Of a DNA stretch of 64,000 bases, positions 52,707-57,787 are shown piece after piece. Below the pieces are notes generated by a model, which saw nothing but the letters and a program-made list of their open reading frames with translations, was not told the origin of the DNA and did not search any database. The DNA lies in the NCBI RefSeq assembly GCF_058153355.1, contig NZ_CM177019.1; one strand, written 5' to 3'. A program made the position numbers and the translations under genes. Numbering within the stretch: the first letter of the stretch is position 1; each line of letters opens with the position of its first letter.

Positions 52707-52780
52707 GCGGGCGTAGTTCAATGGTAGAACGAGAGCTTCCCAAGCTCTATACGAGGGTTCGATTCCCTTCGTCCGCTCCA
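52707..52780 (+). tRNA. glyU: tRNA-Gly (anticodon CCC)
   Basis: GCGGGCGTAGTTCAATGGTAGAACGAGAGCTTCCCAAGCTCTATACGAGGGTTCGATTCCCTTCGTCCGCTCCA: cloverleaf, anticodon loop cuuCCCaag, T-loop GGTTCGATTCC, encoded CCA. Confidence 0.95.
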
Positions 52781-52944
52781 AACAAACATTTCTCAACGTC
52801 TACTAAAGTCCATCAAACCCACGAGTATCAAGCCTTCCAGCCATTTTCATAGTTTATTAACGTCTACTCACAACTACCAGAATCTACACACAGAAGTGTA
52901 TAGTAATGCGTATAGGACAAAATTTATTTTTTGGAGCTATACAC

Positions 52945-54309
52945 ATGCTGCTTTCAGACCTTGCCATCAGGCGCGCGAAGCCGAAAGAAAAGGCTTATAC
53001 ACTCAATGACGGTAACGGGCTTTCGTTGCTCATTGAGCCGAACGGTTCGAAAGGGTGGCGACTGCGCTACAGGTTTGCAGGAAAGCCCAAAATGTTGTCG
53101 TTGGGTGTGTACCCTGATGTGTCTCTGTCTGATGCCAGGGCGGCAAGGGATGAGGCTAAAAGGCTTCTTGCTGGTGGTATAAATCCAAGTGAGGCCAGAA
53201 AAGCCCAAAAGCGAGAACAGGCGAGCAAATTTGGCAATACTTTTGAGGGTATCGCTCGCGAATGGTACGAAAAGCGGATCGACAGGTGGTCATCGTCATA
53301 CGCCGAGGAAATGATCGAGACGTTTGAAAAAGACGTTTTTCCGTACATTGGCGGTAGGCCGATCGCAGAAATTAAGCCGATGGAATTGCTGGCGGTTCTT
53401 TCCCGTCTTAATGACCGTGGTGCGACTGAAAAATTGCGTAAGGTTCGCCAGCGATGTGGCGAGGTGTTCCGGTACGCAATCATCACCGGACGCGCCGAAT
53501 ATAATCCAGCCCCTGACCTGGTGAGCGCATTTGCTCCACATAAAAAAGAGCATTACGCCTGTTTGAAGGCCGATGAACTGCCGGAATTTTTCCGCGTTTT
53601 TAATACGTACACCGGAAGCCAGATCGTCAAACTGGCAATGCGGCTATTAATTCTGACAGGTGTCAGACCCGGGGAATTACGGCAGGCAGAATGGCGGGAG
53701 ATCGATTTTGATAATCGTTTGTGGGAAGTGCCTAAAGAACGAATGAAGATGCGCCGTCCGCATTGCGTGCCATTACCAGAACAGGCGATAAAAATACTGG
53801 AGCAGTTAAAAAACATGACAGGTCAGTATCAGTTTATTTTCCCCGGTCGTATTCACCACAGTAAACCAATGAGTGAAATGGCAATGAATGTGCTCATTCG
53901 TCGTATTGGCTACGCCGGGCGCGTTACTGGTCATGGATTCCGGCACACCATGAGCACCATTTTGCATGAGCAGGGCTATAACACCGCGTGGATAGAGACA
54001 CAGCTTGCGCACGCCGATAAAAACTCAATTCGTGGCACATACAACCATGCGCAATATCTGGATGGCAGACGCGAAATGCTCCAGTGGTATGCCGACTATA
54101 TGGATTCGCTCGAGCATGGCGGAAATGTGGTGCATGGTGAGTTCGGAAAATGCGGGGGACTGGTTGAGTATACAGTAGTAGACTTTGAGCGACTAAAAAC
54201 GGCTGTGTCTAGGGTCGCTCCTGAAAACCCGTACACCTCTGCGGGCTGGCACAGCCACTATGGTAGAGGGCGCGAGGTGACGCGTGATCGATATTGCCGA
54301 ATTACTTAA
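52945..54309 (+). CDS. P4-family (tRNA-targeting) tyrosine integrase, about 454 aa
   Basis: Start MLLSDLAIRRAKPKEKAYTLNDGNGLSLLIEPNGSKGWRLRYRFAGKPKML is the classic P4-type Int N-terminus (arm-binding domain). Catalytic R..HxxR..Y region present (GHGFRHTMSTILHEQG; RGTYNHAQY). Lies 165 bp after the tRNA 3' end. Confidence 0.9.
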   Translation: MLLSDLAIRRAKPKEKAYTLNDGNGLSLLIEPNGSKGWRLRYRFAGKPKMLSLGVYPDVSLSDARAARDEAKRLLAGGINPSEARKAQKREQASKFGNTFEGIAREWYEKRIDRWSSSYAEEMIETFEKDVFPYIGGRPIAEIKPMELLAVLSRLNDRGATEKLRKVRQRCGEVFRYAIITGRAEYNPAPDLVSAFAPHKKEHYACLKADELPEFFRVFNTYTGSQIVKLAMRLLILTGVRPGELRQAEWREIDFDNRLWEVPKERMKMRRPHCVPLPEQAIKILEQLKNMTGQYQFIFPGRIHHSKPMSEMAMNVLIRRIGYAGRVTGHGFRHTMSTILHEQGYNTAWIETQLAHADKNSIRGTYNHAQYLDGRREMLQWYADYMDSLEHGGNVVHGEFGKCGGLVEYTVVDFERLKTAVSRVAPENPYTSAGWHSHYGRGREVTRDRYCRIT

Positions 54310-55287: not shown

Positions 55288-55485
55288 ATGTCAAATACGC
55301 TTATTCGTTTAACGGAAGTTCAGCGTAGAACTGGATATAGCAAGGCATGGATTTATCGCCTTATGGGGCAAGGTAAATTTCCTGCATCAGTTAAAATTGG
55401 CTCGCGAGCTATTGCTTTCGTTGAGAGTGAAATTGACGAGTGGATTAATCAGCGTATTGCTGAATCACGCGGAACAGCTACCTGA
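55288..55485 (+). CDS. alpA: AlpA-family phage/island transcriptional regulator (MerR-like HTH, 65 aa)
   Basis: MSNTLIRLTEVQRRTGYSKAWIYRLMGQGKFPASVKIGSRAIAFVESEIDEWI is the canonical AlpA/prophage CP4-57 regulatory protein pattern. Confidence 0.88.
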   Translation: MSNTLIRLTEVQRRTGYSKAWIYRLMGQGKFPASVKIGSRAIAFVESEIDEWINQRIAESRGTAT

Positions 55486-55563: not shown

Positions 55564-56364
55564 ATGAAATTTCCAAAAACGCCCATACAGGGGCAGGGCT
55601 TCGTTCGGCTTGAAAACCAGAATCTGCAAAATTTTGGCAAAATTATCCCGGTTATTTCCGGCGTTATTGGCGGGCGTGAAACCAATATTGTTAGCGCCAG
55701 AGCGTTGCATAAGGCGCTCGGGGTAGGCCGTGATTTCACAACCTGGATTAAAGTACGCATTGATGAGTACGGATTTAAAAAGGGCGTGGATTTTGAATTC
55801 GTAGAAAATTTGACCTCCCCCAATCCGGTGAGCGCAAAATCTCGCCAACGTATAGAGCACGACTACCTGAGCACTATCAACATGGCGAAAGAACTGGCGA
55901 TGGTCGAACGCACCGAACAGGGCCGCGCCGTTCGTCAGTATTTCATCAAATGCGAGGAGGAGCTACACAAGGTAGCGCCTGTGCGTTCCGCAGCGTTACG
56001 CCGGGAACTGAAAGCCCGTATCACTGTTGCCAGCTACTTTAAGCCAATGTGCGCCGCGCTGGAGGCGTACCGGGCAGAACTGGGTAAAAACACTCTACAG
56101 CACCACTACACCACGGAAGCTAATATGCTGGCGCGTATCGTGCTGGGTGGCATGACTGCAAAACAGTGGGCACTGGCGAACGGCATCACAAGCGAACCAC
56201 GCGACCACATGAGCACGTTGCAGCTTGAGCACCTTTCTTACCTTGAGCAGAGCAATATCACGCTGATTGAGTTAGGCCAGGACTACCACCAGCGGAAAGC
56301 TGAATTAATTCGTCTTTCGCAGCGCTGGTTAGCCCGTCGCATGGAGGAAAACAACCATGTGTAA
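55564..56364 (+). CDS. AntA/AntB-type antirepressor-like protein (266 aa)
   Basis: N-terminal segment SARALHKALGVGRDFTTWIKVRIDEYGFKKGVDFEF fits the AntA domain consensus (..L...L.....F..WIK.RI.EYGF..G.DF). Confidence 0.7.
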   Translation: MKFPKTPIQGQGFVRLENQNLQNFGKIIPVISGVIGGRETNIVSARALHKALGVGRDFTTWIKVRIDEYGFKKGVDFEFVENLTSPNPVSAKSRQRIEHDYLSTINMAKELAMVERTEQGRAVRQYFIKCEEELHKVAPVRSAALRRELKARITVASYFKPMCAALEAYRAELGKNTLQHHYTTEANMLARIVLGGMTAKQWALANGITSEPRDHMSTLQLEHLSYLEQSNITLIELGQDYHQRKAELIRLSQRWLARRMEENNHV

Positions 56365-57018
56365 CGCTCTGACCGTTACAAAAAGAGAAAGCGCCCCGTT
56401 GCCGGAGCGCCTTTGTGAACGAATAGCCTACTGCGCCATATTGCTTACTGTCTACGAGGCAGATTATAGCGTTGTGGTCGCACAGAGTGAAGGCACTGAT
56501 CACCGTTACTACAGCACGCCAGAAATGCAGAATATTTTGCTGCAAAATGCCGCTGGCCACGCTGTCCGGAAAGCAAAAAATTTTGCTGGTGGCGCGACTG
56601 ATACGATTTTTTCTGGTCGCCAGGTGCTGATCAATCTGATGTCTGATTTCGTTCTGGATAAAACAAAGGCGACCGCAGAGGGCCACCAGTGGGAAAGCTA
56701 CACACTTGAACACATCGCCAACAATGCCAGATTTGCGGCTGGTGGGCAATGTGATCAGTGTGTTGGCTTGCTGGTGGGCTGTTCGTCTGGTTCAGTCCGT
56801 TGCCATGCATGGAGTGAACGCATTTTCCAGGAATACTCTTTGAGGTACTTCTCAAGAGCAAACGCACACGGGGCGAATCTCTCCGGTTCATGTTCGTTTA
56901 CCGCATTTTTGCGTTGTTTTTTCCTGGATGAGGATAATTTCTTTAATGATTTGTCAGTCATCGTATATACCTGTAACCCTGTGCGCCACAGTTCACTGCA
57001 CCACGGCGCTGATGGTGA

Positions 57019-57198
57019 TTACTCTGATTCTTTGGCCTTGCGGCGCTGGCGGCGTTTGATCTCACCTTCAAGTGCCGAAACGATAAATTGTCCAGTGCTT
57101 TCGCCTTCTTCCTTTAAACTTTCTACAGCGTCAGCTATTGCATGGGGTACTCGTGCCTCAAGTTTTTTTGATTTTCCATTAACTGCTTTCGTTGCCAT
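57019..57198 (-). CDS. ribbon-helix-helix (Arc/MetJ/CopG-like) small DNA-binding protein, 59 aa
   Basis: MATKAVNGKSKKLEARVPHAIADAVESLKEEGESTGQFIVSALEGEIKRRQRRKAKESE: beta-strand K-L-E-A-R-V followed by two helices, classic RHH layout; AAGGGA RBS; divergent from the rightward operon. Confidence 0.65.
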   Translation of the reverse strand: MATKAVNGKSKKLEARVPHAIADAVESLKEEGESTGQFIVSALEGEIKRRQRRKAKESE

Positions 57199-57218
57199 AT
57201 CTGATTCCCTTGTTATTA

Positions 57219-57299
57219 GGTGGCTGACAGTATACACACAAGAAAATGGAAAAACACTATTGACGTGGCTGACACCTGTTACTAGTATAGTGGCTGACA
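57219..57299. promoter_or_regulatory. divergent control region: three direct repeats GTGGCTGACA (57220, 57265, 57290) overlapping a sigma70-like promoter TTGACG-17-TAGTAT reading rightward
   Basis: Motifs read directly; repeat 2 abuts the -35 hexamer (57260-57265) and repeat 3 lies 2 nt after the -10 (57283-57288). Confidence 0.55.
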
Positions 57300-57787
57300 C
57301 CTTTATTAAGGTAATCGATGAAAAGACAAAGCCCGCAGGCGCTACCAACACCAACGGGCTTCTAACCACCAACGATAGAAAGCGTATCGAGGTAGCTATG
57401 TTAAATCATACCACACACCCGCAAGGGCGGGACTCGCACAACCTGAATAAAGCGGGGGTAAAAAACCAGTTGATCGCCACTGCCAGCCAGGGCTATGATT
57501 TATCTGCACCAGCAAAATCTGGTGCCCGGATTGGCGTCCTGAAAATTCTGAAGGCGACATATGACGCGCCGAGCGTCTTTTTTTATGTCGTAGGTCTGAC
57601 TCACCCATTTTTTGGGCGTTGGTGTATAATCCAGCGCCTTTGTCAATCAATGGTGGCTCAGGCGGGGGCTTCTTCGGAAGCGCCGGTATCCTTCAGAGCC
57701 GGTTACGCCAACCCTGTCTGGGCTACCACCAGCGAAATTGGCGTTTCCGGTGGTAGCGTAACCTGCTATCTGAAGGAGGCTGCCGAC

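Follow-up and report, generated by a model that had tools for sequence, protein, structure and literature searches.

Ribbon-helix-helix (RHH) repressors acting at divergent promoters are textbook, and the system that comes closest to the one described here in how the module works is the immI region of phage P22, with Mnt and Arc acting at Pant and Pmnt. A similar use of short direct or inverted repeats is made by the omega repressor of pSM19035. In the Gram-positive phage-inducible chromosomal islands (PICIs), the Staphylococcus aureus pathogenicity islands (SaPIs), the corresponding Stl proteins are of the helix-turn-helix type. Stl/Rpr is encoded leftward, divergent from the excision/replication operon, and keeps the island quiescent (PMC6092414). 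For the Gram-negative PICIs, EcCICFT073 included, no repressor was reported in the literature searched, which covered few subscription-journal papers. We analysed a 64,000-nt stretch of contig NZ_CM177019.1 (NCBI RefSeq assembly GCF_058153355.1), hereafter the window, which carries a PICI-type island; the window end at position 64000 falls inside the island. A leftward gene for a 59-amino-acid protein, already noticed in a sequence-only reading of this DNA and lying at the position given there, is separated from the rightward early genes by two back-to-back predicted promoters and three short repeats. We propose, with a probability of about 70%, that this protein is an RHH repressor with three operators, which would silence the early/replication operon of the island and regulate its own gene.

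The locus shares with Stl/Rpr its position and presumed role, while Stl is much larger and is removed by helper-phage proteins; the protein here has 59 amino acids and a predicted RHH fold. In addition, int and alpA of Gram-negative PICIs are directed rightward and are not transcribed with the repressor, unlike in SaPIs. No sequence-level relationship links Mnt or Arc to the 59-amino-acid protein, and P22 has one operator of 17-21 bp where this locus has three separate 11-bp GTG-N5-CAC boxes. The operon concerned carries an antirepressor gene in P22, a phage, and icd-like and replication genes here, in a satellite. The omega heptads are contiguous, in a 7-bp register, and also serve plasmid partition, whereas this locus has 11-bp boxes at intervals of 22-45 bp, in fixed positions relative to promoter elements.

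The sequence-only reading had reported three direct repeats within 100 bp, all of them over a rightward promoter. The repeats are present: exact GTGGCTGACA occurs three times in the window, always on the + strand (57220-57229, 57265-57274 and 57290-57299; span, 81 bp). This is far beyond chance, as dinucleotide shuffles gave a mean of 0.11 exact matches per whole window and none of 100 shuffles reached three. No further copy with one mismatch or fewer was found elsewhere in the island when the window was scanned. Copies 2 and 3 sit in a larger 22-nt direct repeat with an offset of 25 bp; read as 11-mers, both are GTGGCTGACAC, and copy 1 is GTGGCTGACAG. Their placement was only partly as described. 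Copies 2 and 3 (O2 and O3) do lie on the rightward promoter, hereafter P_R, one abutting the -35 and the other just after the -10, whereas copy 1 (O1), 45 bp left of copy 2, is on the RHH gene's own predicted promoter (Table 1). Box 1 ends in CAG instead of CAC because these bases are shared with the leftward -10 hexamer TATACT. The P_R hexamers were found exactly as the sequence-only reading gave them; the consensus match is not significant by itself (2 sites found against 1.5 expected in a promoter scan), and the support for P_R comes from the conservation of its position among relatives, not from the scan score. The leftward promoter was not called by the promoter scan of the window, because its -35 is poor, and is identified solely by the conservation of TATACT.

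To place this arrangement among its relatives, we read the region upstream of each homolog in a comparison set of ~140 loci, 66 from GTDB one-genome-per-species contigs and 80 from IMG/VR. The GTDB and E. coli loci gave 64 analysable cases with 59 distinct intergenic regions. A common architecture was found in 60 of the 64, across Enterobacterales, and it recurs in IMG/VR. In this architecture, 24 nt separate the ATG from the start of box 1. On the strand of the RHH gene, TATACT overlaps box 1 by 2 nt in 44 of the 59 distinct regions and always adjoins it, and an A/T-rich tract follows TATACT/box 1 before the -35 hexamer. At the -35 place of P_R, a TTGA(C/A/G)(G/A) hexamer is present in 59/59 regions, its last base being the first base of box 2, and in 46/59 a spacing of 17 nt separates it from the best -10-like hexamer. 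The distance between boxes 1 and 2 is 44-46 bp in all types but one, a fixed spacing that we attribute to the two -35 regions standing back to back; boxes 2 and 3 are 22-26 or 35-37 bp apart.

Each box is a pseudo-palindrome, GTG-N5-CAC, whose arms are invariant in 23/23 types. The N5 core differs among elements, yet hardly or not at all among the three boxes within a single element. The direct, not inverted, orientation of the repeats, which had been taken as a telling trait, holds for this locus and does not generalize: the boxes are themselves pseudo-palindromic, and since box 3 is inverted in many relatives, including several types such as those with cores TATTT, GCATT and CTATG, direct orientation is not required. 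In many relatives box 1 differs from O2/O3 by one or two core bases, suggesting a weaker autoregulatory site. Within ~4 kb on each side of 60 loci, no extra operator copies were found beyond chance, and a wider regulon of the boxes was therefore rejected. In intact relatives, including EcCICFT073, P_R leads to icd-like, DUF4222 and primase/helicase genes. These relatives support the earlier statement that the promoter points into the replication operon; in the window, a leader, an isrK/C4 RNA cassette and an icd-like gene come first, and the operon is broken by insertion sequences (ISs).

The product of the leftward gene is MATKAVNGKSKKLEARVPHAIADAVESLKEEGESTGQFIVSALEGEIKRRQRRKAKESE. It matches NCBIfam NF041551 (YlcI/YnfO) over residues 9-50 with 64.4 bits against a cutoff of 30, and homologs are named YlcI/YnfO family by the Prokaryotic Genome Annotation Pipeline (PGAP). 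It also matches phrog_949; the PHROGs search gave families of unknown function only. The RHH assignment made from the sequence is supported by structure prediction: AlphaFold2, with 41 homologs, gave an RHH fold with a predicted local distance difference test (pLDDT) score of 88, comprising an extended N-terminal segment (residues 11-18), a first helix (19-28) and a second helix (35-58). The model thus has the beta-alpha-alpha order of the RHH superfamily, an N-terminal strand followed by two helices, with the predicted beta-strand at residues 10-17 (SKKLEARV). A G-x-S/T/N turn before helix 2 is a hallmark of this superfamily, and the protein has one at G32-E33-S34-T35, in which E33 is invariant and G32, S34 and T35 each reach 90% conservation or more among the 41 homologs. 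The basic end of the helix, EIKRRQR (residues 46-52), shows little or no variation, and R16, S10 and N7 are invariant in homologs, as are the GTG/CAC arms in the boxes. CB_ParB_C matches seven and PSK_trans_fac three of the 41 homologs, all weakly; we take both to be RHH-type families. The name-givers of NF041551/DUF3950, YlcI of DLP12 and YnfO of Qin, are both uncharacterized. Direct reading of K-12 YlcI reveals the same strand/helix/G-x-S/helix pattern, while the genetic setting differs: K-12 ylcI belongs to the late end of a lambdoid prophage, where cos separates it from the divergently oriented nohD, whereas the window gene lies between alpA/antA and the early operon. No three-box architecture was found upstream of K-12 ylcI.

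One indication of which protein recognizes the boxes comes from the pairing between the predicted strand and the operator. The operator core tracks strand residues 12-14 across 23 strand variants. The strand SKKLEARV, found in the window, E. coli, Xenorhabdus and Pectobacterium, goes with GTGGCTGACAC and pairs with GGCTGA; SKRFDVRV goes with GTGTC(C/G)GACAC (core TCCGA or TCGGA), SQ(A/S)LK(A/S)RV, the type that includes EcCICFT073, with GTGGGCCACAC (core GGCCA), SQKMSARV with TGGGTGCCAG, SQK(L/I)QARA with GGA(G/A)TCC, SQT(I/V)AARV with GTGTTCAACAC, SQMTTVRI with GTGTATTTCAC (core TATTT), SQQLNARF with GTGCGATTCAC (core CGATT), SQQIVSRV with GTGGCAT(T/G)CAC, and SLQVSVRL with GTGGTGTTCAC (core GTGTT). 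This map was reproduced in the independent IMG/VR set, where single-residue steps correspond to single-base steps: K12/E14 goes with GGCTGA, K12/D14 with GTCTGA and R12/D14 with GTCCGA. Protein column 14 has the top mutual information with the core (0.75 of core entropy), followed by columns 12 and 13. When the remainder of the protein was controlled for, a partial Mantel test between box and strand gave r = 0.44 (p = 2e-4), which supports, without proving, that the strand reads the core. Across the ~140 loci, the boxes behave as specificity-determining candidate operators, the outcome of the search in related satellites that the sequence-only reading had called for.

Recombination provides a stronger argument than the Mantel test. 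Boxes of the window type also occur in elements whose AlpA is 29-33% and integrase 24-34% identical to those of the window and whose replication proteins belong to other families. Conversely, elements with AlpA 78-87%, Icd 88% or primase 93% identical (the last in EcCICFT073) have other boxes. In these comparisons, only the RHH gene travels with the boxes.

From the observed architecture, conservation and covariation and from the fold prediction, we infer the following course of DNA binding, repression, autoregulation and induction. The 59-amino-acid protein would bind the three 11-bp GTG-N5-CAC operators, probably as one dimer per site, with strand residues 12-14 contacting the variable N5 core and invariant residues such as R16 pairing with the GTG/CAC arms. 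O2, in the spacer and abutting the -35, and O3, on the start site, would exclude RNA polymerase from P_R; such placement is the classic geometry of steric repression. P_R would be the early-operon promoter, serving the leader, the isrK/C4 RNA (in this window), the icd-like gene, small genes, DUF4222 and the primase, so that occupied operators would keep the replication functions off while the island is integrated. O1, lying over the -10 and the start site from which the RHH gene itself would be transcribed, would provide negative autoregulation, and where it diverges from O2/O3 in relatives it would be the weaker site, occupied last. Diversification of the family into at least 23 strand/operator types would keep co-resident satellites from regulating one another. 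The core of the sequence-only reading, an RHH-type regulator divergent from a promoter toward the replication genes and with the repeats as its operators, is backed by all the computational tests available.

As to how repression may be lifted, the RHH gene is the only gene against the island's rightward flow, and no convincing + strand terminator was found between alpA/antA and the RHH gene, the terminators there being on the leftward strand. In EcCICFT073, the helper phage turns on AlpA, which activates genes of the island (PMC6092414); Pseudomonas AlpA is a processive antiterminator (PMC7969949, PMC9371919). One candidate route is therefore AlpA-driven rightward read-through over the convergent RHH gene: a transcript started at the alpA promoter would run antisense to the RHH message and would also bypass P_R. 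Another candidate is a helper-encoded anti-repressor, as in SaPIs. More speculatively, the invariant arginine-rich helix end EIKRRQRRK might contact a conserved leader hairpin of the early transcript.

Other accounts of the boxes were weighed against repression. It is unlikely that the RHH protein binds them mainly as an activator or dual regulator, for example by stimulating its own weak promoter from O2. Lambda CI at OR2/PRM and Mnt at Pmnt are models for self-stimulation from a neighbouring operator, the leftward -35 is weak in most loci, and the centre of O2 lies ~47 bp upstream of the predicted leftward start, with the 45-bp O1-O2 spacing strictly kept. However, the back-to-back promoter geometry also explains the fixed 45 bp, and O2/O3 in the P_R spacer and on its start site, together with O1 on the leftward start, are typical of steric repression; activation from O2 stays a minority alternative because the leftward -35 is so poor (GTGTTT). 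Recognition of the boxes by a different regulator, be it AlpA, the AntA/Bro-N protein, the Icd-like protein or a host factor, with some other role for the RHH protein, appears quite improbable. Experiment has so far established AlpA alone as a regulator of Gram-negative PICIs, one that activates island genes (PMC6092414), and because the RHH gene adjoins the boxes, linkage alone could give covariation. Yet box type is uncoupled by recombination from the AlpA, integrase, AntA, Icd and primase types, on which ground AlpA, Icd, AntA and the integrase were each rejected as box binder; a host factor cannot account for 23 element-specific cores in single host genera, or for two to four types per genome; and the protein columns that say most about the box coincide exactly with the predicted DNA-reading strand.

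A toxin-antitoxin arrangement, in which the RHH protein would be the antitoxin and autoregulator of a 68-amino-acid open reading frame (ORF) directly downstream (56755-56961) and the boxes would serve that operon only, is very unlikely and was rejected: no downstream partner is conserved across 69 loci, most of which have none, the 68-amino-acid ORF has no family match and is found with differing box types, and two of the three boxes are on the opposite, rightward promoter. There is hardly any likelihood that the repeats are replication iterons of an origin or centromere-like sites instead of operators. Short direct repeats by replication genes are typical of iterons, and the RHH proteins omega and ParG also bind centromere repeats. 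Nevertheless, identical boxes stand beside unrelated replication proteins, namely the D5_N primase in the window, DUF927 in locus L001, a RepA helicase in locus L002 and proteins of 760-810 amino acids in Xenorhabdus, and on this basis the iteron/origin reading was rejected. Conversely, the EcCICFT073 primase is 93% identical and its boxes are different. The boxes are also locked to promoter hexamers, no ParA partner accompanies them, and the PICI origin maps downstream of pri-rep (PMC6092414).

Several observations weigh against the repressor reading itself. For the fold, no curated RHH profile was matched, as the 59-amino-acid protein has no Pfam hit at E<=0.1; RHH_1 (Pfam) matches only one of the 41 homologs (E 0.009), a PDB profile search with the protein gave no match, and Foldseek of the model against PDB returned nothing significant. 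Since it is based on a predicted fold, with the sequence-profile and Foldseek searches of PDB empty, we regard the assignment to the RHH (Arc/MetJ/CopG) fold as of moderate strength. For the pairing, box type correlates with the remainder of the protein as well (partial r 0.45), and some covariation is expected by shared descent because gene and operators are adjacent. One strand type, SQKTSVRI, has the core TCCGA like the differing SKRFDVRV, and its three boxes are less uniform. For the regulation, the leftward -35 of the window (GTGTTT, 57252-57257) is weak, and the box spacings of 25 and 45 bp are non-integral helical turns, which leaves cooperative binding uncertain. Two to four modules, all of different types, are present per genome in L014, L024, L026, L060 (Xenorhabdus innexi) and eight other genomes; none of 16 co-resident pairs is of the same type, which fits hetero-immunity and, with P ~0.10, is only suggestive.

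The island adjoins tRNA-Gly(CCC) at 52707-52780. Its gene order, with the integrase beside the attachment site, alpA and a rightward primase module, is that of Gram-negative PICIs and matches EcCICFT073; past the RHH gene, the rightward genes are icd-like, small phrog_340 genes, DUF4222 and a D5_N primase (Table 1). In E. coli, the same module is found in a helper-embedded PICI (L001), in a PICI at tRNA-Pro of a Shiga-toxin-type strain (L002) and in EcCICFT073 (L069, 7931-18655). In EcCICFT073, the gene of a YlcI/YnfO family protein, C_RS30120, points away from that of an Icd-like protein, behind which come DUF4222 and a DNA primase; the high-numbered locus tag of C_RS30120 looks like a later annotation addition. 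The 59-amino-acid family is spread across Enterobacterales and is narrow: only 93 clusters (50% identity) of 1.84 billion representatives match the satellite profile, tblastn in 50,697 phage records gave no match to the family, and only eight plasmid records match. Of 5,426 complete E. coli genomes, at least 493 have a match to a gene-plus-operator query, in every case a chromosomal one.

Table 1. Positions of the features discussed, in window coordinates; promoters, boxes and RNA elements are predictions
Feature	Position	Strand	Remarks
Tyrosine integrase	52906-54309		Island left end
int-alpA RNA motif	54202-54269		Rfam RF02996, 45.5 bits vs gathering 35.8; 3' end of integrase gene
AlpA	55288-55485		PF05930, 69 bits
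AntA-type protein	55564-56364		
59-amino-acid RHH candidate gene	57019-57198	-	ATG at 57198; from ORF list
Shine-Dalgarno of RHH gene, AAGGGA	57206-57211	-	7 nt upstream of ATG; purine-rich element at same place in relatives
Box 1 (O1), GTGGCTGACAG	57220-57230	+	2-nt overlap with leftward -10, over predicted start site; proposed autoregulatory operator
Leftward RHH-gene promoter, predicted -10 TATACT	57229-57234	-	Conserved beside box 1 in relatives
Rightward promoter P_R, TTGACG-17-TAGTAT	57260-57288	+	Consensus scan, 9/12 matches; position kept in 59/59 related regions
Box 2 (O2), GTGGCTGACAC	57265-57275	+	Inside P_R spacer; first G common to -35
Box 3 (O3), GTGGCTGACAC	57290-57300	+	Begins 1 nt past P_R -10; over predicted start site
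Structured 5' leader of P_R transcript	57329-57389	+	Hairpin 1 (HP1) 57329-57361, conserved UCUAACCAC, hairpin 2 (HP2) 57373-57389 beside Shine-Dalgarno
Second promoter-like site, TTGATC-18-TATGAT	57470-57499	+	Consensus match only; ends 7 nt before isrK-like RNA start
isrK-like RNA	57506-57583	+	Rfam RF01394, 68.8 bits vs gathering 50
Upstream C4 targets in isrK-like RNA	b1 ATTGGCGT 57530-57537; a1 TCTGAAGG 57547-57554	+	
Intrinsic terminator ending isrK-like RNA	57563-57584	+	
C4-type antisense immunity RNA	57646-57733	+	RF01695, 79.9 bits vs gathering 45, E 6e-16, full length
Downstream C4 targets	b2 ATTGGCGT 57737-57744; a2 TCTGAAGGA 57769-57777	+	a2 overlaps icd Shine-Dalgarno
icd-like ORF, 62 amino acids	57788-57976	+	NF033153, 69.3 bits vs 25; first complete protein gene after P_R here
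IS66-family insertion	58000-60468	+	Imperfect terminal inverted repeats from GTAAGCG; 8-bp target duplication CCTTAACC at 57992-57999 and 60469-60476
DUF4222 protein	60853-61152	+	PF13973
D5_N primase	61149-62189	+	PF08706; truncated by IS110-family element
IS110-family transposase gene	62248-63423		

No function for the YlcI/YnfO gene was assigned in the literature searched (YlcI, YnfO, DUF3950, RHH with PICI), with few subscription-journal papers covered; YlcI/YnfO was mentioned only as an accessory 'prophage-associated protein' (PMC13612085). The module is a concrete candidate for the missing repressor of Gram-negative PICIs. Extending this, we tentatively put forward a broader idea that we think could be right but would not bet on: that the master repressor still missing from Gram-negative PICIs and capsid-forming PICIs, EcCICFT073 included, is the YlcI/YnfO-type RHH protein, which would also determine their immunity, with more than 20 hetero-immune classes set by a two- or three-residue code, and that the helper induces by override, through either read-through by AlpA-loaded polymerase or a titrating helper protein. 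The strand-to-operator map would offer natural orthogonal repressor/operator pairs for synthetic biology, and the strand/operator type could be a marker for sorting satellites into immunity groups.

Downstream of P_R, the transcript would begin with a structured leader. Alignment A2, with 26 diverse sequences, has 87.7% of its cells paired, compared with at most 40% in slid controls; compensatory changes occur in 13 of 18 pairs, and the observed score was reached by none of 500 shuffles. The leader matched no Rfam family at E<=1. The HP1-UCUAACCAC-HP2 arrangement is present in ~58 related loci and adjoins the ribosome-binding site of the icd-like gene. By its sequence conservation and covariation, the leader may represent a cis-regulatory RNA motif of PICI-type satellites that has so far gone undescribed. 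A 12-nt inverted repeat (57301-57312/57441-57452; 92% complementary, 128 nt apart) was also observed, through which the very 5' end of the P_R transcript could base-pair and close the leader in a long-range stem. In many relatives, a local palindrome, CACCTTGA-N5-TCAAGGTG, stands straight after box 3 instead of this long-range repeat.

Between P_R and the replication genes lies an isrK and C4 RNA immunity layer that was not part of the sequence-only finding. The C4 loop UCCUUCAGA (57689-57697) is complementary to TCTGAAGG(A) at 57547 and 57769, and the C4 segment ACGCCAA (57705-57711) is complementary to TTGGCGT at 57530 and 57737. The RF03163 c4-a1b1 model scored 32 bits, below its gathering threshold of 46.7. 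Compared with immI of P1/P7 (c4, icd, ant) and the CI RNA of P4, the window has a full C4-type cassette including the icd-like ORF; C4 and isrK matches in Gram-negative PICIs have already been noted (PMC10111431). Whereas icd is followed by ant in P1/P7, it is followed here by small phrog_340 genes, DUF4222 and the primase, with no ant, and the upstream promoter, subject to a C1-type repressor in P1/P7, appears here to be controlled by the RHH protein. In this window, the C4 antisense RNA would act in the manner of P1 immI as a second, post-transcriptional lock on icd. Judging by its hexamers, the promoter-like site just upstream of the isrK-like RNA possibly drives the RNA cassette independently of P_R and the RHH protein.

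The cassette is also present in L002. It was not found at the Rfam gathering threshold in 18 diverse RHH-bearing loci, and annotation and sequence of L001 show neither a cassette nor room for one, so that C4/isrK was rejected as an obligatory partner of the RHH module. Since the cassette is optional, the RHH gene, the three operators and P_R make up the conserved core of the switch, to which the RNA lock is an add-on. The translation of 57398-57784 matches the Pfam family PF10554 ('Ash protein family') with 115 bits, and its residues 34-129 coincide with the isrK-like and C4 genes (57506-57733). The same stretch is labelled by PGAP as a partial 'ash family protein' pseudogene in relatives. The Ash-family annotation here probably reads through RNA genes.

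A few further features of the island were observed. The int-alpA RNA motif is also present in six related loci. The 68-amino-acid ORF on the - strand is 67% identical in L001, L002 and EcCICFT073 and was absent from other genera in the survey of downstream partners at the 69 loci; leftward terminator-like hairpins follow it at 56687-56668 and 56413-56388. A 539-amino-acid open frame on the + strand (56357-57976), antisense to the 68-amino-acid ORF and the RHH gene, extends over the operators and the RNA genes and reaches into icd. This frame almost certainly does not represent a gene, and comparable long frames may explain why the RHH gene is lacking in earlier annotations.

The operon under P_R is broken in this window by the IS66- and IS110-family insertions. 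The former splits the gene just after icd, whose halves rejoin to a 69-amino-acid ORF of the phrog_340 type. Because the replication gene appears truncated, with its stop at 62189 before the IS110 transposase gene, the island is probably defective. At the window end, identical 78-amino-acid ORFs at 63558-63794 and 63763-63999 point to a tandem duplication of ~205 bp.

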